A stretch of 34,932 nucleotides of DNA from Nitrososphaerota archaeon (GCA_022572285.1 JACZWF010000002.1:1-34932), one strand, 5' to 3'; numbered from the stretch's first letter, positions 1,445-34,830 are shown. Numbers and translations are program-made. The notes: a model not told the origin generated them from the letters alone.

Positions 1445-2341
1445 CTAAGCGATAGTAGCAGAGTTGGCATTGAAACCAAGTTTCATAGCAATTGATTCAG
1501 TTGCGTTTGCGTCGGGGTCCCTACCTGAGATATTGAAGAGTTTTGCATTGGTGATTGTTAGGGCTATTGTATCGTTGAGATTGTAGACGAATGTCCTAAG
1601 CGTCTGAGCTCTCAGATCGTCTTCGAGTGAGACACTTGCGTCGGTATTCCATTCAACCGTAAAGTCCCCGGCTATCTTTCGCATTGTCGGCCTCTGGAAT
1701 TTGATGAGTGGATCCCCAATGGGTCTCTTGTTACTGATATTGCGGGTGACTGTCAGATTGAAGTCTAGGATATCTTGCTCAACTGCGTTCCAGGTGAACG
1801 GTGTAGTTGGGTCGGCTCCCGTAATGGGTGCTGTTGTGCCTGGAGTATGATGTGACCCTAATCCAATAAAGTCACTGGTTGATGGGTCCGTAATTTGTGC
1901 TGAGACTATGTCGGCGCTGCATTGCAGTTCGTCACTCTCTGAATCGAGATGCAGGCGCATTGCTTCGATCCTGCTACCAAGCATTTGAATGAAGTTCTCT
2001 ACTCCATCGATCTCAATGGAATAAGCCATCGCTAAGGACCTGTCGTTTGTTCCTGCTCCTGCTCTTGCATTGATTCCGTATGCTAGGAAAGTAAGCGCAT
2101 TGACTCCGAAGTCTATTGTGGATTGATAGTCCTCGCGGGTATTGAGGTATTTGTAAGCGTCCTCAGATCCCATTCTTCGAAACTCCTTTTGTGGGAAGTC
2201 TATTGTGTGAACTACTTTCGCGACTTCGGCAACTTTCAGCATGGTTGGATTCGTTGGCATTATCCTAAAGGATGCTGCTGCCTCTTCCACATATTCGAGT
2301 TGTTCGATTACTTGACCTGCATGAGTTGATTCAAGACTCAT
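1445..2341 (-). CDS. abundant virion protein, possibly major tail/tube protein
   Basis: 298 aa. The ATG overlaps the upstream TGA (ATGA) and has AAAGGAGAG 8 nt upstream. It is Thr/Ser/Asn-rich and looks beta-rich, and an ORF carrying a slippery site follows. The functional call rests only on context. Confidence 0.4.
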   Translation of the reverse strand: MSLESTHAGQVIEQLEYVEEAAASFRIMPTNPTMLKVAEVAKVVHTIDFPQKEFRRMGSEDAYKYLNTREDYQSTIDFGVNALTFLAYGINARAGAGTNDRSLAMAYSIEIDGVENFIQMLGSRIEAMRLHLDSESDELQCSADIVSAQITDPSTSDFIGLGSHHTPGTTAPITGADPTTPFTWNAVEQDILDFNLTVTRNISNKRPIGDPLIKFQRPTMRKIAGDFTVEWNTDASVSLEDDLRAQTLRTFVYNLNDTIALTITNAKLFNISGRDPDANATESIAMKLGFNANSATIA

Positions 2342-11956: not shown

Positions 11957-12388
11957 TTAGGAAGGTTTATTGAGACGTCTAAAGTGTTTTGCGACTTTGA
12001 CTCTCATATCTGACGGAGGTATGCTTCGCTTAAAGATCTTGGCAATGGTGACTCTTGTATCTGGGATTTCTGCCCTGCGCGGTGGCTGACTGGTCCTCAC
12101 CTTCTTGGCGTCTTGATGATCTGTGAACCCTTTGGTCCTCATCTGATTTCTTAGCGTTGCTGTAAATGGTTCGAGTCTGCACCTACAGTTGTAATGAATG
12201 GGAGGTTCGAATGTTGGTGGGAATTCTTGAGCTTGCCAAACCTTTCGATTGAGACGTCTGCACCTATCAGTTGTTCGGCTATCCATTTGGGCGACATACC
12301 TGACGAATTCCCTAGGTTTGTCGAGAGCTTTGATTACTTCGAATATCCTATTGAGCTGGCTTGCTTGCTCTTGTAACTGCTCGCTCAC
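11957..12388 (-). CDS. head morphogenesis protein (Mu F / SPP1 gp7-like)
   Basis: Signature DSRTTDRCRRLNRKVW...PPIHYNCRCRLEP. It follows the portal gene. Confidence 0.75.
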   Translation of the reverse strand: MSEQLQEQASQLNRIFEVIKALDKPREFVRYVAQMDSRTTDRCRRLNRKVWQAQEFPPTFEPPIHYNCRCRLEPFTATLRNQMRTKGFTDHQDAKKVRTSQPPRRAEIPDTRVTIAKIFKRSIPPSDMRVKVAKHFRRLNKPS

Positions 12389-13757
12389 GAATAATCACCC
12401 ATTCTTCAGTTCCGGGTAGTTTCATCTCCATTTCTGGGGCTTCTTCAGGGTCCATCCGTTCGGCGTCGGTGTCTTTCATCAGCTCGAGACCCATATTCTC
12501 AGCATTGCGTCTGAATTCCTTTAACGTAATTCCCCTTGATTCGAGAGCTCCTAAGATGAACTGTGGATCTGGATCAGGTGGATCCATCGGATTCCAATGT
12601 AGTTCTATGTTTGCTGATTCCCATGGCTCGATTGCTATATCGGGGTGACTTCTCCACCATGGCTCGATTATCTTAGAGGTGATTTCTAGGGCCATGATTG
12701 TTTGATATCCTCGATAGTTCAGCTTGGCAAGATGGATTGCTGCCTCAGATGAAGCTCTATTGAAGTCGGGTCTTGTGAATATTCTGGGTGCCGGAGTTTG
12801 AAGAGCCTTTAGGATTTCAGCTTGCTGCAAGTCCATGAAAGACTCGACGTCCATGACTCTACCCCTAGAACCCATCTCTTGAACTTCAGCTCCTTCTCCG
12901 ACTACAAAGTCTTCTCCAGGCTCTAGCACTTTGAGAGTTGACCGATTGGCGTCGAGTTGCTTTTCAGTTGCGCCTGGGAATTTGTAGATGTTTCTCGGGA
13001 CATATCTCCGAATGAGCAGACGGGATTCATCTAGGATCTGAGACTTTGCGTCCATTATTGAGACTGCGAAACGGGTCTCGAACTGGTCTTTGACTTTGAC
13101 GGAATAAGGTCGGTCGATTGTCAGGGCATAAAGGAGACCGAGGCCGTAAATTCCACTGTTAGACTTTCCCCAGGTGAAATGAATGACCTCTTCGGCAGGG
13201 AGCATTTGACTCTTGGTTCCTCTGAGATCATAGGCGATTAGCTTGCCTGTGCCTTTTTCAAACCATACTCTCTTGAAGTCGGATATTGGTAACCAGTTTA
13301 GATCGGAGAAGTTGTTCGCTTCTTTCATCCACCACAAGTTGTTGCCGTATGCGATCGTCTCGAAGACTATGCCATCATAGATCTTTTGATAGAGGTGGGT
13401 TCGCTTCGAGAATTCTTCTATAACTGGGAGAGAGTCTTTGCTTCCAGTGAAATAGATCCCAGGGCCCGCGATTGAATTGCGGGTCCAGTCTAGGGCAAGC
13501 CTGGCGTCTCCGTCATTTTCATACCAAGAGACCTGAGCTGAAAAGGGAGCCTTCGGAGCTAGTGATAGCTTTGCGCTTGTAATGTTACGAAAGTTCGCGG
13601 GGAAGGCTTCGGCTATGCTGATACGATTGTGCAGGATCATATTCTTGTAAGCAGCCATTGAGAGGCGCGTCTTCTCTCTCTCATCCTTTACCGGGGTAAT
13701 TACTGGAGCTTGATTCAAGCTTGGAACACCTTCGTGTAGTAATTGCATGAAGGTCAT
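12348..13757 (-). CDS. portal protein
   Basis: 469 aa between the terminase and Mu-F-like genes, with an acidic C-terminal tail (DPPDPDPQ, MDPEEAPEMEM). The call rests on position and size. Confidence 0.7.
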   Translation of the reverse strand: MTFMQLLHEGVPSLNQAPVITPVKDEREKTRLSMAAYKNMILHNRISIAEAFPANFRNITSAKLSLAPKAPFSAQVSWYENDGDARLALDWTRNSIAGPGIYFTGSKDSLPVIEEFSKRTHLYQKIYDGIVFETIAYGNNLWWMKEANNFSDLNWLPISDFKRVWFEKGTGKLIAYDLRGTKSQMLPAEEVIHFTWGKSNSGIYGLGLLYALTIDRPYSVKVKDQFETRFAVSIMDAKSQILDESRLLIRRYVPRNIYKFPGATEKQLDANRSTLKVLEPGEDFVVGEGAEVQEMGSRGRVMDVESFMDLQQAEILKALQTPAPRIFTRPDFNRASSEAAIHLAKLNYRGYQTIMALEITSKIIEPWWRSHPDIAIEPWESANIELHWNPMDPPDPDPQFILGALESRGITLKEFRRNAENMGLELMKDTDAERMDPEEAPEMEMKLPGTEEWVIIRERAVTRASKPAQ

Positions 13758-13954
13758 GTCTTTTTGGCTCCAGGCATTTTCATCATTATGTTGACATATT
13801 CAATTACATTCTCATAAAAGTAGAATTGCGTATCGCAGTCCGAGCATTTATACCGGGGGAAAATGAACTTTGGGTCGATAGGTGATAGATTGAGCTCTTC
13901 GTGTTCTGTCCTGATGTTGGTTTTTTTACACCGAGGGCAGGAGAGACTACCCAT
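13754..13954 (-). CDS. zinc-ribbon protein, 66 aa
   Basis: CPRCKK ... CSDCDTQF. Its stop overlaps the portal start. Confidence 0.55.
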   Translation of the reverse strand: MGSLSCPRCKKTNIRTEHEELNLSPIDPKFIFPRYKCSDCDTQFYFYENVIEYVNIMMKMPGAKKT

Positions 13955-14112
13955 CTTTGGTTATCTCTTCTTCTCTTAGAATATTTGCAGATGGTGTATT
14001 GTCGATTGCTTCTCTAATGTAGATAAATTTGGATTTATCACATTCCAGAGTGATTTTAATTTTAGTTTTATCGAGAACCATCTAAGACAACATCGTATTT
14101 GCTAGCGCGCGC

Positions 14113-14343
14113 TTAACGTCCACGACGCTTGCAGGGTAAGTCATCTTGTCGGTCCTTCGTGTCACTAGTTGCCGATAGCTCACATCTCGAGCAGGTGAGA
14201 TTCATGGCTCCTGATTGAGTTCTTACTCCGGTCTCTTCCCATGGGTGCTTGTATTCCTTTTCAACTTGTGGAGTTTCCGCAACTGCTACCTCTTTCTTTT
14301 GGCTACCCTTTTGTCCTTCATCCAGAGTATTTTCCTTCGACAT
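14113..14343 (-). CDS. hypothetical charged protein, 76 aa
   Basis: The ATG abuts the stop of the terL nuclease ORF. Contains CSRC. Confidence 0.5.
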   Translation of the reverse strand: MSKENTLDEGQKGSQKKEVAVAETPQVEKEYKHPWEETGVRTQSGAMNLTCSRCELSATSDTKDRQDDLPCKRRGR

Positions 14344-14967
14344 TCAGATTCGATATACCCCTAGATCGACCATGCCTAAAAGTCTTGGTTTGGCAATATG
14401 GCATAAGATTGAGGTCGCTTGAAACCTGTCGTCGTGGGTTCCGCTTGGATGACCGTATTTTGGGCTTGCGGTTCCCTTGCTGACTAGCTCCTGTTCTTTC
14501 AGCTCTCGTTCTAAGGCTCCACCCTTTGCCGATTCGGGTATAATGAAGATTTTGTTTGACATGAAGAATCGCAGATCTGTAACCATCTCATGTTTGAGCT
14601 GTTGACTGTATTTGAGAGGTTCGACGGGAACTCCGGACCGTTGAATGAATTCTGCTAGGGCTACTTCACTGGTCGCGTCAATGCCCAGCTTCAAGAAGGT
14701 TGAGTATTGTCTGATTTCTTGCTTGACATCCTGGGCAATGATTGGGTAAGCCATGTGATCCCATACTTTCAGTCTCTTCAGTAGTAGCCTATTAGATATG
14801 TCCATGAATCTAGGCTCCTGGTCGGGGTCGGGTTGAACCCTTACTCGTATGGGCTGTTCGGTGTGAATGATGGCTCCGATTGCTAGAGCTGTAAAGTCCC
14901 TAGTTCTTGCGACGTCCATGCCTCCCAAATGGCAGAGGGTTTCAAATTGGCTTTCCAAATGGATCAA
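14344..14967 (-). CDS. terL: terminase large subunit, C-terminal RNase H-like nuclease domain (separate ORF)
   Basis: Acidic-triad blocks GGMDVARTRDFTALAIG, LGIDATS and GTHDDRFQA. The track start is TTG with no SD. The frame is closed by a TGA 8 codons upstream of that TTG. Confidence 0.75.
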   Translation of the reverse strand: MIHLESQFETLCHLGGMDVARTRDFTALAIGAIIHTEQPIRVRVQPDPDQEPRFMDISNRLLLKRLKVWDHMAYPIIAQDVKQEIRQYSTFLKLGIDATSEVALAEFIQRSGVPVEPLKYSQQLKHEMVTDLRFFMSNKIFIIPESAKGGALERELKEQELVSKGTASPKYGHPSGTHDDRFQATSILCHIAKPRLLGMVDLGVYRI

Positions 14968-15154
14968 CTGGTTGAGGTATTGGCTCTCTCTTCATCCGTA
15001 TTCTTGACCCTTCTCTCATTTGACGCTTAAACCAAGCTTGGTATTTCCCACACTTCGCCCAATGATTCTCGATTATAGTTTCAAGTCTATCTTCGGATTT
15101 GGCTCCGAATGGAGTCCCGCAGAATTGACATCTCTGCCTGACGAGTTCGCTCAA
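14942..15154 (-). CDS. zinc-binding miniprotein, 70 aa (TTG start)
   Basis: CQFCG...H..KC. Its 3' end overlaps the nuclease ORF start by 26 nt in another frame. Confidence 0.45.
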   Translation of the reverse strand: MSELVRQRCQFCGTPFGAKSEDRLETIIENHWAKCGKYQAWFKRQMREGSRIRMKREPIPQPVDPFGKPI

Positions 15155-15198
15155 TGCTTAATCAGGAATTAAGTCAACCTCTATCTCTGGGAACAGTC

Positions 15199-15390
15199 TC
15201 AACTTGTCGGTGTCGCTTCTTCAATGGTTTGTTGGCCTACTGCTTTCTGACATGCCATCTTCAGACCCAGCATGATTTCTTGTGCTTCCTCCTCTGACTC
15301 GATTCCTGATATTCCTGCGCTGACTGTCCAACCATCTACACCTTTCTTAGTTCGCTTATAGGCTCTCCCAACCGTATATTCTTCTGTCAT
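15199..15390 (-). CDS. hypothetical protein, 63 aa
   Basis: The ATG abuts the upstream stop. A CTTAAT-N5-ATTAAG hairpin (15157-15173) follows. Confidence 0.45.
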   Translation of the reverse strand: MTEEYTVGRAYKRTKKGVDGWTVSAGISGIESEEEAQEIMLGLKMACQKAVGQQTIEEATPTS

Positions 15391-15585
15391 CTATTCACCC
15401 CCTACGTTGAATTCCGTATTCATGTTGATTCGTAGTTTTTGGATCTCGTTTGTAAGTCTATCGATTTGCGTGACCTGTTTAGCGATCAGATTAGCGATCA
15501 TGATGTTTTGTCTCTCAACCATACTTTGTGATTCTTGAGCTCGACCCTTCCAATAGTCGTAATTCGCTTTATTGTGCTTGTTCAT
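15391..15585 (-). CDS. coiled-coil protein, 64 aa
   Basis: Heptad-like sequence MIANLIAKQVTQIDRLTNEIQKLRINM. TAATG overlap with the upstream ORF. Confidence 0.45.
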   Translation of the reverse strand: MNKHNKANYDYWKGRAQESQSMVERQNIMIANLIAKQVTQIDRLTNEIQKLRINMNTEFNVGGE

Positions 15586-15752
15586 TATATTGGAATCGCC
15601 ATTCGGTCAGTTGCCTTTTCATCTGATTTCGTTCCTTTCCTGATACCTGTTATGTCATAGAACCCTCCGTCTTCATCCCATTCGGTCTGTTCTACTTCAA
15701 ATGCTACTTGTTTCGAACAATGTGGGCAAATTAAGACATCTGTTCTTTTCAT
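15585..15752 (-). CDS. miniprotein, 55 aa (not in track)
   Basis: Hand translation: MKRTDVLICPHCSKQVAFEVEQTEWDEDGGFYDITGIRKGTKSDEKATDRMAIPI*. ATGA overlap upstream and TAATG overlap downstream. Confidence 0.45.
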   Translation of the reverse strand: MKRTDVLICPHCSKQVAFEVEQTEWDEDGGFYDITGIRKGTKSDEKATDRMAIPI

Positions 15753-16012
15753 GGTCTTGCCTCTTTGATTCTCTGAGGTTCAGGTGGATTCTTCCGTTCC
15801 TCTTCTAGTCTTCGCATGCGGTTGACGAGGGGTTTGCCTTCAATCGAGGCAATGACTCGGTAGAGTTCGAAGTTGTTTGCTTCAAGACTCTCGCACCTGA
15901 ATTCTTCGAGTAGTTCATCATGAGTTGGGATGAAGTGATCATTTCCGAGTTTCCCGTATAGGAGTTTGTAGAGATCGGGCCATGTAAAAGAGAATGAAAA
16001 GGACTTATTCAT
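15749..16012 (-). CDS. hypothetical protein, 87 aa
   Basis: The ATG lies directly after the upstream TGA. No family recognised. Confidence 0.45.
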   Translation of the reverse strand: MNKSFSFSFTWPDLYKLLYGKLGNDHFIPTHDELLEEFRCESLEANNFELYRVIASIEGKPLVNRMRRLEEERKNPPEPQRIKEARP

Positions 16013-16351
16013 TCAGCCTTCCTCCTCAGGTCTTACAGGCATAAACTCATTGCTCTCGAGTCCAAGTGCATGACAGATCTTCCTAACCCCTCCATGCTTC
16101 TTGCATCTCTGAACGAGATGGCCCTCGAATGTGGCGATGGTCTCCTGATCGCATTGCGGAATGCAGGTTTTGATTACGCTATCCATTATTTTCCCCGGTG
16201 AGATATGTTGTAGGTTCGGCTTGAATTGTGTTCCGCAATCACATTCGCATGGACCTTCATGGATTCCTATTATGTTACAGAAGCAGACGGGTATTTGCTC
16301 TCCATCTTTTTCATAGGTTTCAAAGAATTCGCTTTCAGGTAAGTTACTCAA
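16013..16351 (-). CDS. Cys/His-rich protein, 112 aa (TTG start)
   Basis: CFCNIIGIHEGPCECDCG...CIPQCDQ...CKKHGGVRKICH. The TTG overlaps the terL-ATPase stop. I could not find an HNH, GIY-YIG or LAGLIDADG signature. Confidence 0.5.
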   Translation of the reverse strand: MSNLPESEFFETYEKDGEQIPVCFCNIIGIHEGPCECDCGTQFKPNLQHISPGKIMDSVIKTCIPQCDQETIATFEGHLVQRCKKHGGVRKICHALGLESNEFMPVRPEEEG

Positions 16352-17297
16352 TTACACCACTGTCGAACTCTTCAAAGGCTCCTTCTATAATACTTTCCGA
16401 TATCGCTGATTGTTGGCTTGTGATGAATTGAGCTTCGAATTCCTGAGCGAATAACGGCCCTAAAGTCTTGGCCCTGTCTTCAATGAACTCTCTCGAGATG
16501 AGTTTGTCGAGAGCTACGTGATATGGATATTCACGTTTCCAGGCATTGACCTTTCCTTCTTCGACTTGACGGACTCTTCCATGGAACCATCCTCTCTGAC
16601 CCTTTGGAGTCGAGACGGCCCACAAGTCTCCGTTAGTGTTTGCAAGTCGACCGATTGCTGCTGCAAGAACCTCGTCGTCGTTAATGAGTCCATAATGGGC
16701 TGCTTCATCCAAGAAGACCGCAATCACTCGATACCAAGAACGCATTGAGGAAGCTGACCCGGGGACCTCGATGTATTCTGTTCCGTTTGTTAGTCGAAGT
16801 CTTGAGGAGGACCTATCGTCTTCTATGTATGTAGAGAGTCGGTCCGAATTGCGAAAGAGTTCATGGAGTCGACGCATGTTCTCGATTGATATCTCTTCCC
16901 TGTGACTACCCATTAAGATCTGATAGCCGGCGTAAGGTCCACCGGGGGCGCCGTTTTGAGCTAGGCCTCTGAGTATGGTTTCTGTGATTCCTATCTTGTT
17001 TGACTTTACGATTAGACCTTCGTGATACCTTCTCTGAGTCATGGTCTTCAGGATATCTAACTGGTATTGATAGAGACCTGTGGGTTTGTTCGTTAATGGG
17101 TGTATGGGGAGACCTATGGCTTCATTCCATATTCGAGGGTCCCTGGGGAGCTCTCCTGTCGATAGGAGTCGAGCCTTATGTGCTAATGCCTGAGCTAGTA
17201 ACTGCTTTGCTTCCAGCCTCGATTCGTTTAATGTCGGCAAGAGTTTCCCGTAACTCCTCCAAGTCTCTTTCCATTTCCATTTGAATGTTGCTGACAC
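16344..17297 (-). CDS. terL: terminase large subunit, N-terminal ATPase domain (separate ORF)
   Basis: Deviant Walker A KSNKIGIT (compare lambda gpA KSARVGYS), Walker B VIAVFLDEAAH, and the inter-domain linker block LFAQEFEAQF. The stop follows soon after. The start is GTG and overlaps terS by 122 nt. Confidence 0.8.
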   Translation of the reverse strand: MSATFKWKWKETWRSYGKLLPTLNESRLEAKQLLAQALAHKARLLSTGELPRDPRIWNEAIGLPIHPLTNKPTGLYQYQLDILKTMTQRRYHEGLIVKSNKIGITETILRGLAQNGAPGGPYAGYQILMGSHREEISIENMRRLHELFRNSDRLSTYIEDDRSSSRLRLTNGTEYIEVPGSASSMRSWYRVIAVFLDEAAHYGLINDDEVLAAAIGRLANTNGDLWAVSTPKGQRGWFHGRVRQVEEGKVNAWKREYPYHVALDKLISREFIEDRAKTLGPLFAQEFEAQFITSQQSAISESIIEGAFEEFDSGVIE

Positions 17298-17619
17298 CTG
17301 TTAGTCCTTCGAGGTCTGTCAACATCTTGTTTGCTCTGAGAGCTTGTTGATGCCACCTGACTTTGATCTCTCCGTCAGTCTTGCCATAGTTCTTCCAGGC
17401 TTCTCTAATTAGCTCGTAGATTGCTCCCACTCTGACGTATAGATTGTTGTGAGTTCGCTGTTCCCTGGTTTGATTCTCGCGATACCATTTACCTGCTTTG
17501 GTTCGAACTACTCGTAGATCGTTATCCACGGTCTTCTCTGAGATTTTGAGAGCTTTCGCCATCTGTCTGATAGTTGTTCCGCGATATAGTAGACCTTCAA
17601 TTTTTTCACGCCTGAGCAT
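17176..17619 (-). CDS. terS: terminase small subunit (HTH)
   Basis: 147 aa immediately upstream of terL, with the N-terminal HTH TTIRQMAKALKISEKTVDNDL and a helical C-terminal half. Confidence 0.55.
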   Translation of the reverse strand: MLRREKIEGLLYRGTTIRQMAKALKISEKTVDNDLRVVRTKAGKWYRENQTREQRTHNNLYVRVGAIYELIREAWKNYGKTDGEIKVRWHQQALRANKMLTDLEGLTGVSNIQMEMERDLEELRETLADIKRIEAGSKAVTSSGIST

Positions 17620-17734
17620 TACCGCTTCGGCTGTAGTAGATACTGGAGACTTCTTTCTCTTGGAGACCGTAATGGTTGAGAATTAACGAAGCCTAGATTT
17701 AAGTTATTTTGTCAAAAGAGTTTCGGGGTTCAGT

Positions 17735-19903: not shown

Positions 19904-20500
19904 TTAGCTCGCCTCGGTTACCAGGTGTATTGTATCTCTGATTATGCAGGCGATTGGATAAGGGATTTTCGCTCTCAATTTACTCGCTTCGTCAAAACCG
20001 AATTTCATATATTCTGGCGCTTCCATTCTCTTGTGTGAGATATAGTGTGGTGTTAGACCGATGGGGATGTTACCCCATAAGAGCCGGTGTCCTCTGACTG
20101 ACATCATAAAGTGCCAAATGGGTTTCCTTGGATAGAATTTGCTCAGACGTTTGACATTCTCCATGGCCCAATATTTGGGATTTGCTTCTTTGATTATCCT
20201 GTTGAATTCATCGACAAGTCTCATTCCTCTAGCGGGGTTTGGTGGTTTGCGTCCATGTCTGCTCTTATTCGCTTGGGATGCAGTCGTGAAGTCTGTGCAT
20301 GGTGGGGAGCCAATGATTAGATCGAAGCCTTGGAATTTGCAACCGTCGAGAGTCTTAATGTCTTGAATAATCAGTTCTCCAGGGTAGCCTTGATTTTTGA
20401 TATCGATACCGACAACTTCGTCACCATCTTCTATGAATGGAATACTCCATCCTCCCATTCCGCAAAATAGATCTAGGACCCTAAGTTGACTGGTTGTCAT
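19904..20500 (-). CDS. miniature DNA (cytosine-5) methyltransferase (~198 aa)
   Basis: Motif I VLDLFCGMGGWS, motif IV GSPPCTDFT (catalytic Cys present, T where Q is usual), motif VI AMENV, and a motif X-like IPYPIACII. There is very little room for a target-recognition domain. ATG 20500 lies inside the last codons of DUF488. Confidence 0.75.
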   Translation of the reverse strand: MTTSQLRVLDLFCGMGGWSIPFIEDGDEVVGIDIKNQGYPGELIIQDIKTLDGCKFQGFDLIIGSPPCTDFTTASQANKSRHGRKPPNPARGMRLVDEFNRIIKEANPKYWAMENVKRLSKFYPRKPIWHFMMSVRGHRLLWGNIPIGLTPHYISHKRMEAPEYMKFGFDEASKLRAKIPYPIACIIRDTIHLVTEAS

Positions 20501-20945
20501 ACTCGCGCGCAATCAAGTGAAATCCCGCCTGGTTGTGATTTGTAACTTCTTCGCCTCGGGGTAGTGGGAAGAGATGTTCTACGGTTTCGCCCAGTTTCAT
20601 CAGGTCTGGAGTGATCCATTGACCTCGGTGACACTCTTCAGGCTTTCTCTCGAGACACATGAAGGCGATATTGATGTGTTCGTCAGGGTATTCCATTACT
20701 TGAAGTGAGTGAAGAGCCTTTGCATATTCAGGTCCTCTTTCTCCAGTTTTTCCCCCAAGTCTTGGATCGTGAATGTATGAGATTCCATGATGGATAAGCG
20801 AATCTCTGAGGTATGCCTTATTGAAGTATTTGACCCGAGATCTTGGGATAGTTCTGACATCAACAAGAGTCGCTATGTCCCTGTCTTTCAGGACTTTGAT
20901 GAAGTTCGGGAGGGAAGTAAGCGAATAGCCAATGCTATAAAACAT
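20481..20945 (-). CDS. DUF488-family protein
   Basis: MFYSIGYS..., LVDVRTIPRSR, ISYIHDPRLGG and FMCLERKPEECHRG match the DUF488 pattern. The start is taken at ATG 20945 (TAATG overlap); the track start is GTG 20954. Confidence 0.75.
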   Translation of the reverse strand: MFYSIGYSLTSLPNFIKVLKDRDIATLVDVRTIPRSRVKYFNKAYLRDSLIHHGISYIHDPRLGGKTGERGPEYAKALHSLQVMEYPDEHINIAFMCLERKPEECHRGQWITPDLMKLGETVEHLFPLPRGEEVTNHNQAGFHLIAREYDNQST

Positions 20946-21067
20946 TAGAGCCACTTTTCCAGATAGATAGTCCCGTTCCGATTCTCAACCCGGTAGCCCT
21001 CACCACATAGAAGGCACTCGGCAGTTGTTGAGTTTGCTTCTATTGATATTGAGCTGTGGCTACACAT
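20945..21067 (-). CDS. miniprotein, 40 aa (not in track)
   Basis: MCSHSSISIEANSTTAECLLCGEGYRVENRNGTIYLEKWL*. It overlaps both neighbours. Confidence 0.35.
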   Translation of the reverse strand: MCSHSSISIEANSTTAECLLCGEGYRVENRNGTIYLEKWL

Positions 21068-33267: not shown

Positions 33268-34830
33268 TCAAAACGCCCATTGTGTTCCTATTATAAGGTC
33301 GCAATCGTTTGATCCCCCTGGGTTCGTTCCTATGTAGAACGCGGTGCAAGCTCCTGAGCTTGAACCTTCAGAAGCAACAGTTTCCGTTTCTTCCATCGTA
33401 AAGTCTCGGAGGCTTGGCCTGATATTGTTGAATAGATCTGTTACTTCAGTTGCCGTCAGAGCTCTGGAATATATCCGAACTTCATCGAGAACGCCCGTAA
33501 TATGTTCTGCACCTGCCGGACTCGCGCCTAGAGTAAGAGCCAAAGTAGTGTTAGGTAAATCTCTGGTGCTAGCTAATGGACTAGACGATTCTTCGACCGC
33601 GTCACAAAACACTCTCATTTGGGTTCCGTCAAACGTGCATACCACGAAAGTAAATCCAGTATCGCTAATAACTATACTGCCAGTCAGGGTATCATTCCCC
33701 CCTCCTGAATCTCTTCGTCTGAATCTGACAAAGTTGCTGCTAGTCTTTCTTATTTGCCAACCTCCGTCTCCTGATGAATGTTTGCTTATGATGTCACCAT
33801 CGACTGCATCATTGCGTTTAATCCAAAATGATACACTAAAGGGAACGACTCCATCAAAATCTAAAATGTCGCCAATCGTAACGAGTTGAGAGCTAGCAGC
33901 CACAAATTGTATAGCCTTACCAAGTATTCCATCCACGTAGATAGGTGAGCCTGTTTCAGTCCCATTATTGACGAATCCACTCATGTCTTCAGTGTGACCT
34001 TCGAGAGGGTAGAACGCGGAAAGAAGATGTTCGGGTTCGAATTGGTGTGGTTGTGGTTTTGGATATGTGAAAAGTTCGAGAACTTCGACATCGGTGAGAG
34101 CTCTGCTCCATATTCTGACTTCATCGATATCTGCATTGAGTTGATTACCTCCTCCTGATTTCCTTCCAATTTCTAAAGTTAAGGCGTTGGTTGACGTTCC
34201 TCTTGAATGTGCTGTCGGAGAGAATGACGATTCCACTCCATCAACGTAAGCTCGAAGATTACCTGAAGTCTTTACGGCGACAAGATGTTTGTATCCTGCA
34301 TAATTATTACCAGTATTGAACCTGACATTTGATCTTCCTCCTGAATCTGAGTATTCAAAATGAATATCGGCTGGCGAACTCGCGATTCCAATCTGATAGC
34401 CTGCCCCTACTGCGAAAAAGAGTCCTTTTGATATTATGACTTGAGAGCTTGCTACGTTGTCTCCTTTCAACCATAACGATATTGAGAAATCACCAGTTCC
34501 GAAGTCGAATGGATCATCAGATAGAGCGACATATTGGTCAACACCGTCTAATGAGATCGCAGAGCCTTCTTTTCCTGATACAAATGTTGGCGAGTTGAAA
34601 GTAGTCCCATGATTCTTTTTGTCACTCTTGTCTCTTACACTCCCTTCCATCCTAAGCCATAATTCGAGAGAGCTAGTATCTAGGAGATTGTATCGTTCTT
34701 TGACAGATCTTATTGTATTGAGAGTAATTGAATCGTCTCTCAGCTTGGTTCCTGTTTCGAGTTTATTGACTCTGCCTCGTATCTCATTAAGTTCGTCGGC
34801 TAGCGTCTTCCGTCTCCTGAGAGTCGACAT
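33268..34830 (-). CDS. tail fibre-like protein with two LamG (Laminin_G_3 / concanavalin-like) domains
   Basis: The two domains carry the same blocks: ISLDGVDQYVALSD...DFSISLWLK...LRAYVDGVE...DEVRIWSRALTDVEVLELF and IQFVAASSQLVTIGD...PFSVSFWIK...MRVFCDAVE...DEVRIYSRALTATEVTDLF. The N-terminus is coiled coil. Confidence 0.85.
   Translation of the reverse strand: MSTLRRRKTLADELNEIRGRVNKLETGTKLRDDSITLNTIRSVKERYNLLDTSSLELWLRMEGSVRDKSDKKNHGTTFNSPTFVSGKEGSAISLDGVDQYVALSDDPFDFGTGDFSISLWLKGDNVASSQVIISKGLFFAVGAGYQIGIASSPADIHFEYSDSGGRSNVRFNTGNNYAGYKHLVAVKTSGNLRAYVDGVESSFSPTAHSRGTSTNALTLEIGRKSGGGNQLNADIDEVRIWSRALTDVEVLELFTYPKPQPHQFEPEHLLSAFYPLEGHTEDMSGFVNNGTETGSPIYVDGILGKAIQFVAASSQLVTIGDILDFDGVVPFSVSFWIKRNDAVDGDIISKHSSGDGGWQIRKTSSNFVRFRRRDSGGGNDTLTGSIVISDTGFTFVVCTFDGTQMRVFCDAVEESSSPLASTRDLPNTTLALTLGASPAGAEHITGVLDEVRIYSRALTATEVTDLFNNIRPSLRDFTMEETETVASEGSSSGACTAFYIGTNPGGSNDCDLIIGTQWAF

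Follow-up and report, generated by a model that had tools for sequence, protein, structure and literature searches.

The stretch of DNA analyzed here, 34,932 nt from a Nitrososphaerota archaeon (GCA_022572285.1 JACZWF010000002.1:1-34932, hereafter "the window"), carries every one of its genes on the minus strand and belongs to a tailed virus, as indicated by tail-tube, tape-measure-like, and ConA-like fibre genes located away from the locus discussed below. The large terminase subunit (TerL) is a hallmark of tailed viruses and is described as a single two-domain protein. In the packaging module of the window, the two domains are encoded by two open reading frames (ORFs) located 1.38 kb apart. 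The coding order is a helix-turn-helix (HTH) protein in the position of the small terminase subunit (TerS), the ATPase ORF, six small ORFs (i1 to i6), the nuclease ORF, three further small ORFs, and the portal gene (Table 1). All the ORFs listed in a first-pass annotation of the sequence were found, on the minus strand, and its central claim, that the large terminase is encoded as two separate ORFs broken in the inter-domain linker, agreed with the evidence from domains, motifs, and the ends of homologues.

The ATPase ORF (TerL-N) matched Pfam GpA_ATPase (1.6e-5) and the PHROG terL family phrog_7579 (1.3e-9), and a profile built from this ORF and 20 homologues recovered the ATPase domain of T4 gp17 at 4.4e-9. 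The best superposition of its AlphaFold model (predicted local distance difference test, pLDDT, 83.8) was obtained with the isolated T4 gp17 ATPase domain (E 2.6e-11, template modelling score TM 0.67), and the model also matched the ATPase domain of P74-26 TerL. The ORF had been proposed to encode the complete ATPase half on account of a Walker A-like KSNKIGIT, a Walker B VFLDEAAH, and a linker block LFAQEFEAQF, and the alignment placed the invariant positions of the family in these three blocks: K98/G103 (KSNKIGIT), D197-E198 (VFLDEAAH), and Q285-E286 (AQEFEAQF), with S229/P231 being invariant as well. The Walker A, Walker B (hhhhDE), and coupling motifs of the ASCE P-loop packaging ATPases are thus all present. 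In the Walker A of the family (residues 98-105), the profile alignment showed an Ile or Val opposite the canonical lysine of T4 gp17, and the invariant Lys (K98) six residues upstream. The resulting pattern, K-S-x-[KR]-[IV]-G-x-[ST], would correspond to the "deviant" Walker A of lambda gpA. The ORF ends 31 residues past the invariant Q285-E286, and TerL-N has a conserved acidic tail of the form [DE][DE][YF]-x-[DE]-x-x-[LW]. The 20 homologues, whose identity to the window goes down to 27%, are all 214-314 aa long and end 18-33 residues after the Q-E of the QE[FY]EC.F motif, nearly all of them at 18-22, with P0020 as an outlier. The ATPase gene has no usable ATG; by comparison with the 94%-identical homologue P0001, which has the same length of 298 aa, its likely start is TTG 17240, with GTG 17297 as the alternative.

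The nuclease ORF (TerL-C) alone matched PHROG terL families weakly, whereas a 26-sequence profile recovered the G20c/P74-26-type TerL nuclease at 2e-26 and T4/RB49 gp17 at 6e-10. Its model (pLDDT 81.1) covered the whole G20c nuclease domain (5m1f, E 5.7e-6). Residues D18, D24, D97, K125, and H178-D179-D180 are invariant in the family, so that the ORF contains a complete RNase H-like domain with a conserved acidic active site, as initially proposed. Profile searches therefore identified both halves as terminase domains. The nuclease ORF is closed upstream by an in-frame TGA and offers TTG starts, exactly as first described. In almost every split relative, the nuclease begins with an ATG located 2-5 codons ahead of strand beta1 (e.g., MRIAGIDSGK, MVMHYAGLDLAR). 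The closest homologues, P0021 and P0022, whose start regions read MPTEEYETLCHLGG and MSEYETLCHLGG, as well as the related locus L005, have an ATG within one codon of TTG 14958 of the window, from which the sequence reads (M)ESQFETLCHLGG; this TTG, giving 204 aa, is likely to be the start according to the alignment. A start at ATG 14919 is unlikely because it would remove beta1, before which the ORF begins at most 16 aa. The lack of an ATG and of a Shine-Dalgarno (SD) sequence at this position had been noted in the first-pass annotation; it is a local detail, the relatives having an ATG and the ATPase gene having none either. Since the ATPase gene of the window virus also lacks a usable ATG, the non-ATG start of the nuclease gene is no sign of decay.

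We compared substitution rates between the window and L005 (~89% nucleotide identity). The ratio of nonsynonymous to synonymous substitutions (dN/dS) was 0.04 for the ATPase half and 0.06 for the nuclease half. Judging from the sequences, both halves are conserved genes under strong purifying selection, with complete domains and intact active sites. No second intact terL was found in the window, either with hidden Markov models (HMMs) of the ATPase and the nuclease run on all stop-to-stop ORFs or with Pfam and PHROG scans of the large ORFs, as the first-pass reading would have it.

The split was then found to extend well beyond the window. We fetched 93 related loci and, together with the window, scored the stop-to-stop ORFs of all 94 with the ATPase HMM and an iterated nuclease HMM. 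The terminase was split in 73 of them, fused into an ORF of 420-500 aa in 11, and represented by an ATPase gene only, with no nuclease within the fetched stretch, in 10. Among split loci, the halves were at most 50 nt apart or overlapping in 21, 51-700 nt apart in 38, and 0.85-5.2 kb apart in 14. The two domains thus do not share an ORF in 73 of the 94 loci, the window included. In all 73, the nuclease gene keeps the orientation of the ATPase gene and follows it within the packaging module. Among seven fused controls, Pfam detected both Terminase_6N and Terminase_6C in five (L055, L067, L071, L087, L088) and the N-terminal domain only, at the threshold used, in the other two (L073, L083). In fused relatives, the ATPase match ends where the nuclease match starts (297/298 in L087 and 282/281 in L088 with the HMMs), which places the break in the linker, with nothing missing.

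In a neighbor-joining (NJ) tree of the ATPase domains, the window grouped with L005, L006, L089, the loci from metagenome-assembled genomes (MAGs), and a large marine group in a clade whose members are all split or ATPase-only; none is fused, down to 25-30% identity. A mixture of fused and abutting-split forms was confined to a distant clade. Comparison with relatives thus did not reveal an uninterrupted terL within the clade of the window. The halves overlap in different frames in L006, L054, L058, L061, L063, and others; they are in frame, with a single stop followed immediately by an ATG, in L064, L075, and L089; and they are separated by hundreds to thousands of bases (0.1-5.2 kb) in other split relatives. 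The first-pass annotation had attributed the split to the 1.4-kb insert, but relatives at 25-47% identity share the break with abutting or overlapping halves (L006, L089, L063, and others) or with different inserts. The split is therefore older than the insert.

In about 20 marine loci (L009-L014, L019, L022, L025, L032-L034, L039-L041, L047, L050), the nuclease ORF lies in the frame of the ATPase ORF, 141-168 nt past its TGA, and a coiled-coil ORF spans the gap in another frame. This agreement of frames probably reflects shared ancestry.

Searches of larger collections gave the same picture. With the ATPase profile run against 1.84 billion representatives, all hits stronger than ~1e-47 were 120-333 aa long, except P0038 (637 aa), and ~39 of the best 150 were at least 420 aa long. 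The nuclease profile retrieved 3,512 proteins at E<=1e-5, of which the best 120 were all stand-alone (189-244 aa), most with PF17289 only and some from bacterial MAGs. The bacterial locus L096 has a 251-aa gene with Terminase_6N only, a gap of 132 nt, and a 201-aa gene with Terminase_6C only. The same ORF boundaries recurred in independent metagenomes (10 member sequences for P0001 and 7 for P0021), and L005 has the same layout; the split is thus not an assembly artefact. The arrangement had been called unusual, which holds for the searchable literature but not for sequence space, in which stand-alone halves of TerL abound. Two of the ATPase homologues are named as Nitrososphaerales proteins, and matches in genome collections came from Thaumarchaeota, Nitrososphaerota, and Nitrosopumilaceae MAGs; the window virus probably infects ammonia-oxidising archaea.

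Several loci in this dataset have a different context. L096:4113-5606 lies on a 3.1-Mb bacterial contig (GCA_040769005.1), with an integrase and a methyltransferase nearby and no portal or capsid gene within 5 kb, and may be a satellite-like element carrying only the split terminase. Lone ATPase-only TerL genes occur on thaumarchaeal chromosomes (L007:9341-10645, L008:5091-6404, L001:10001-10837, L003:10001-10843), and neither a nuclease nor a portal or capsid gene lies within 10 kb of them. Two of these genes, those of L007 and L008, are each preceded by a weak homologue of the TerS-like protein of the window and surrounded by PIN/VapBC and HicB toxin-antitoxin genes. These two loci resemble NitKor-E1 of Nitrosopumilus koreensis, an "enigmatic" integrated element with TerS and TerL only and an adjacent VapBC/PIN (PMC6563490), from which the window differs by its portal, tail, and other virion genes. 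Finally, L090:6741-7188, from a Thaumarchaeota MAG, has two stops after the ATPase ORF, and its nuclease lacks ~65 positions at the start of the profile, the beta1 aspartate among them; this provirus copy seems to be decaying.

Table 1. Packaging-module genes of the window in coding order, including the small genes on either side of the terminase nuclease gene.
Feature	Coordinates	Strand	Remarks
TerS-position small HTH protein, 147 aa	17176..17619	-	Candidate small terminase; directly upstream of the ATPase gene
TerL-N, stand-alone terminase ATPase subunit	16344..17297	-	317 aa from GTG 17297; 298 aa from TTG 17240
i1, 112 aa, Cys/His-rich	16013..16351	-	Overlaps the ATPase stop by 8 nt
i2, 87 aa	15749..16012	-	No family match
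i3, 55 aa, CxxC miniprotein	15585..15752	-	Zinc-ribbon-like matches, weak only
i4, 64 aa, coiled-coil	15391..15585	-	No family match
i5, 63 aa	15199..15390	-	No family match
i6, 70 aa, CxxC...C protein	14942..15154	-	Stop overlaps the nuclease gene start
TerL-C, stand-alone RNase H-like nuclease subunit	14344..14967	-	207 aa from TTG 14967; 204 aa from TTG 14958
Three small ORFs, 76, 44, and 66 aa, the last with CxxC pairs	13754..14343	-	Between the nuclease and portal genes
Portal gene	12348..13757	-	End of the packaging module; Pfam Phage_portal 7.4e-6, PHROG portal matches

The six small ORFs reported between the two halves are all present (112, 87, 55, 64, 63, and 70 aa). Their description as tightly overlapped did not hold for i5 and i6, which are separated by 44 nt. 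None of the six matched HNH, GIY-YIG, LAGLIDADG, reverse transcriptase, or any other family in Pfam and PHROG, and these family scans likewise found no homing endonuclease or intein in either half, in agreement with what had been noted by eye. Several of the ORFs have a counterpart in L005: i1 over its N-terminal 60 aa (78% identity; the ORF is 59 aa long in L005; dN/dS 0.19), i2 (93% identity, dN/dS 0.15), i4 (81%, 0.41), and i6 (78%, 0.15). These values indicate purifying selection on i1, i2, and i6 (0.15-0.19), the case of i4 being less clear. For i3 and i5, we found no counterpart in L005 or in any other locus compared, and none of the six had one beyond L005. The gap is longer in L005 (1.95 kb vs. 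1.38 kb), where i1 (shortened), i2, i4, and i6 are kept, i3 and i5 are missing, and extra ORFs are present. The i4 homologue (L005:5810-6007) has an in-frame stop after codon 14 (MNKRNKANYDYWKH*AQES...), so i4 is either dispensable in L005 or begins further downstream. In the window, i6 overlaps the nuclease gene by 17 nt; a frameshift fusion between i6 and the nuclease was ruled out, as in L005 the two are kept apart by ~300 bp and two additional small ORFs.

The gaps of other clades have nothing in common with the insert of the window and contain recurring insert genes of their own. In 32 marine loci, a conserved coiled-coil ORF of 62-70 aa (consensus MEITDLPTLFQIATAQESN...QQDLLDEIT) is wedged between the two genes and overlaps both of them (L009:3521-3712, also L012:1242-1430 and L016:1944-2150); in 15 loci, it is accompanied by an ORF of ~82 aa. 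This coiled-coil protein may act as a third component of the terminase or as an adaptor. Its match to i4, which is broken by a stop in L005, was ambiguous (hhalign probability 32%), and a third component conserved between the marine loci and the window was not retained on these grounds. Where the gap reaches 2-5 kb, it contains as many as ~20 small ORFs, a large number of which have CxxC pairs, along with some genes ~220 aa in length. From its gene content, the gap between terL-N and terL-C behaves as a fast-turnover hotspot for small accessory genes, often of the zinc-ribbon type. Three more small ORFs lie between the nuclease and portal genes, two of them 68-70% identical in L005 and the 44-aa one absent there, so that small variable ORFs occur throughout the packaging module and not in the terL gap alone.

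The genes flanking the terminase are well conserved. The HTH protein (90% identity in L005, dN/dS 0.10) gave weak matches to HTH, sigma-70 region 4, and PHROG terminase-small-subunit families; it occupies the typical location of TerS and may have this role. The portal protein is 93% identical in L005 (dN/dS 0.08). The order of the packaging module, with the TerS-like gene upstream and the portal gene downstream, is identical in L005 and L006.

Elsewhere in the window, a ConA-like/Laminin_G_3 fibre-type protein (33268-34830, minus strand) and the tail-tube protein (1445-2341, minus strand) are encoded at opposite ends, so the tail module wraps around the window ends. This suggests that the window is a circularly permuted or incomplete genome; no terminal repeat marking it as complete was found, and no tRNA was detected in it. 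A C5 cytosine DNA methyltransferase ORF (19904-20512, minus strand, 202 aa) matches only positions 2-118 of the 324-position Pfam profile. Its motifs FCGMGG, PPC, and ENV are present, and the target-recognition and C-terminal parts are missing or located elsewhere, so that this enzyme, too, may be truncated or split. The gene immediately upstream (20481-20954, minus strand) encodes a DUF488 protein conserved in L005 (L005:205-636).

How a split terL ORF leads to functional protein can be explained in several ways. If the 1.4-kb segment were a group I, group II, or archaeal bulge-helix-bulge (BHB) intron carrying six genes, splicing would restore a terL mRNA. Group I introns are indeed frequent among known terL interruptions, with splicing confirmed by RNA-seq in Jug phages, and nuclease homology in the window begins soon after the in-frame stop. 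However, no Rfam family reached its gathering score anywhere in the window, and the region 13700-17700, scanned at E<=10, yielded nothing relevant, only two chance-level matches to microRNA and small nucleolar RNA families. The duplex between the junctions was matched or exceeded in stability by 75% of random window pairs. Two relaxed BHB-like matches were found, and neither would join the halves in frame. Moreover, insert-free relatives (L006 and L089 in the clade of the window) still have two ORFs that are often out of frame with each other, the nuclease ORF of relatives opens with an ATG of its own, and the insert ORFs evolve as coding genes that differ between close relatives. An intron is thus highly improbable. 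The first-pass annotation had left open the choice between an intron with six genes and two polypeptides, and the arrangements and nuclease ATGs of the relatives back the latter. A single TerL could also be obtained downstream of transcription, through a split intein (a "fractured gene") or through recoding by frameshift, readthrough, or bypassing. Metagenomes are known to contain a fractured terminase that combines a split intein with a free-standing endonuclease gene (PMC2677866), and three relatives (L064, L075, L089) have in-frame halves with one stop between them. There is however no room for a split intein in the window, with 31 aa past Q285-E286 and at most 16 aa before beta1 compared with fragments of 88-105 and 33-54 aa, and neither Pfam nor PHROG detected a Hint, intein, or endonuclease domain. 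As for recoding, 1.4 kb and six ORFs lie between the halves in the window, and the in-frame relatives have an ATG directly after the stop. We find this explanation hardly credible. Since no single recoding or splicing mechanism covers all the arrangements found among relatives, separate genes fit the data.

Other explanations accept two genes and question what they do. The locus could be a decaying terL in a defective provirus, with one or both halves being non-functional remnants. The ten ATPase-only loci, some in plainly cellular contexts (L001, L007), the truncated nuclease after two stops in L090, and the non-ATG start of the nuclease ORF in the window could be understood in this way, but the dN/dS of both halves is as low as that of the portal, the catalytic residues are all intact, a full virion module (portal, tail tube, tail-fibre-like genes) surrounds the locus, and dozens of viral contigs have preserved this architecture, which makes decay very unlikely. 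It is unlikely, too, that the ATPase alone forms the motor, as in phi29, while the nuclease does another job, such as the resolution of replication intermediates or the degradation of host DNA. Such a division of labor would agree with halves up to 5.2 kb apart, with the existence of lone ATPase-only genes, and with the very large number of stand-alone nuclease genes. Against it, the nuclease gene follows the ATPase gene on the same strand within the packaging module in the 73 split loci, the nuclease retains the full terminase-type active site, and no other candidate terminase nuclease was found in the window.

We therefore favor, as likely and with good confidence, that the large terminase is made as two independently translated polypeptides, and that the fission is ancestral to the lineage and was not caused by the insert. 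TerL-N (~298-317 aa) would be the portal-bound packaging ATPase motor, and TerL-C (~204 aa) would be recruited non-covalently and cut concatemeric DNA at the start and end of packaging. Both would assemble with the TerS-like protein and the portal into a packaging holoenzyme, with the acidic tail of TerL-N as a candidate docking peptide. Each half would have a translation start of its own, a TTG in the window and an ATG in relatives, with the translation of TerL-C possibly coupled to the termination of i6. The gene fission would have occurred in the flexible inter-domain linker, in the ancestor of a large lineage of tailed viruses that includes proviruses in Nitrososphaerota (Thaumarchaeota) genomes, and the space freed between the two genes would then have been taken up by small ORFs as a cargo slot.

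Some observations weigh against this scenario. The proportion of 73 out of 94 is biased toward split forms because the loci were gathered with an ATPase-only profile, and the host assignment is based on MAG titles, not on spacer or tRNA matches. The nuclease ORF of the window has neither an ATG before beta1 nor an obvious SD sequence, and the case for the synthesis and interaction of two polypeptides is indirect, from conserved synteny and purifying selection. In T4, separately expressed gp17 domains are said to keep their ATPase and nuclease activities but not to package DNA together. If so, the present lineage would have evolved a stable interface between the two proteins, or it would use an ATPase-ring mechanism with the nuclease outside the translocating unit.

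The proposed two-gene terminase can be compared with several known systems. In Staphylococcus and Bacillus phages, terL may be interrupted by group I introns or inteins. In herpesviruses, the gene for the terminase pUL15 (UL15) consists of two exons with unrelated opposite-strand genes in the intron, and spliceosomal splicing produces one protein (see PMC6843332). The latter case resembles ours in that a terminase gene lies in two pieces around other viral genes; here, the intervening genes share the strand of the terminase, splicing signals are absent, and two proteins are predicted. The intron- or intein-interrupted terL of crAss-like and Jug phages likewise consists of several ORFs with other ORFs in between, but the interruptions lie within conserved motifs, contain ribozymes or Hint domains together with homing endonucleases, and splicing repairs them. 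In contrast, the break in the window lies in the linker, comes with none of these elements, and persists in relatives with nothing between the halves. The packaging ATPase gp16 of phi29 also works without a covalently attached active nuclease; however, phi29 packages unit-length, protein-primed DNA that needs no cutting, whereas the window virus keeps a complete terminase nuclease as a neighbouring gene. The canonical TerL proteins (T4 gp17, Thermus phage P74-26/G20c, lambda gpA) share with the two halves the ATPase fold, a Walker A of the K-S-x-[KR]-[IV]-G-x-[ST] type known from lambda gpA, the Walker B DE, the STP coupling motif, and QE[FY]E, as well as the RNase H-like nuclease with its D...D...HDD active site and the order TerS, TerL, portal; they differ in being one two-domain protein, where the window and its whole clade have separate gene products. 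The fused C-terminal nuclease has been treated as universal in Caudovirales in a review (PMC7824862). A further case is the "fractured" terminase of Dassa et al. (2009), in which two terL ORFs with a free-standing endonuclease gene between them yield two polypeptides that are rejoined by trans-splicing of a split intein (PMC2677866); its intein fragments of 88-122 and 33-54 aa would not fit here, and none was detected. The known cases of terL in pieces (introns, inteins, split intein, UL15) thus all restore one protein.

We found no description of a two-gene TerL split at the domain boundary in the full-text literature searched, a coverage that leaves out many subscription papers; the papers retrieved dealt with terL split by introns or by a split intein, or were irrelevant. 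When both halves, along with bacterial-type halves, were run with tblastn against 50,697 GenBank phage records, the only matches were a few distant fused TerLs, with no annotated two-gene TerL among them. The "Terminase, ATPase subunit" of Meiothermus phage MMP17 was considered as a precedent and rejected, being a fused protein of 415 aa. Databases nevertheless hold such proteins implicitly, in short PHROG "terL" families and under the NCBI name "terminase large subunit domain-containing protein". The two-gene terminase thus appears to be a widespread but undescribed architecture, of which the window is an ordinary member.

The importance of this finding would lie in the mechanism of the packaging motor and in TerL-based virus detection, not in the six-gene insert. 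In the "inchworm" model proposed for T4, the nuclease domain participates in DNA translocation in cis, whereas in the ATPase-ring models of P74-26 and phi29 it mainly docks and cuts. Viruses with a split terminase would be a natural test of whether the motor depends on a covalent link to the nuclease, and would make testable whether an ATPase-only ring translocates DNA, which half binds the portal, and how cutting is coupled to head filling. A bolder reading, which we regard as tentative and rather doubtful, is that there exists a large, ancient lineage of archaeal and bacterial tailed viruses with an obligately two-subunit large terminase and a non-covalently attached nuclease, the covalent link on which current motor models rely being dispensable and the fission perhaps adaptive. 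If this were true, fission could permit separate dosage or timing of the nuclease, or could weaken immune sensing of the two-domain TerL fold, for instance by the Avs family; the Avs3-terminase complex (8dgc) was among the fold matches of the ATPase-half model. The gap between the two genes would then offer accessory or anti-defence miniproteins a protected place with late co-expression. Independently of this reading, the terL-N/terL-C gap emerges as a hotspot for novel genes in viruses that infect ammonia-oxidising archaea. For viral genomics more generally, detection methods, completeness estimates, and phylogenies that expect a TerL of ~450-600 aa would truncate such viruses, miss them, or mis-call them as fragmented or defective.

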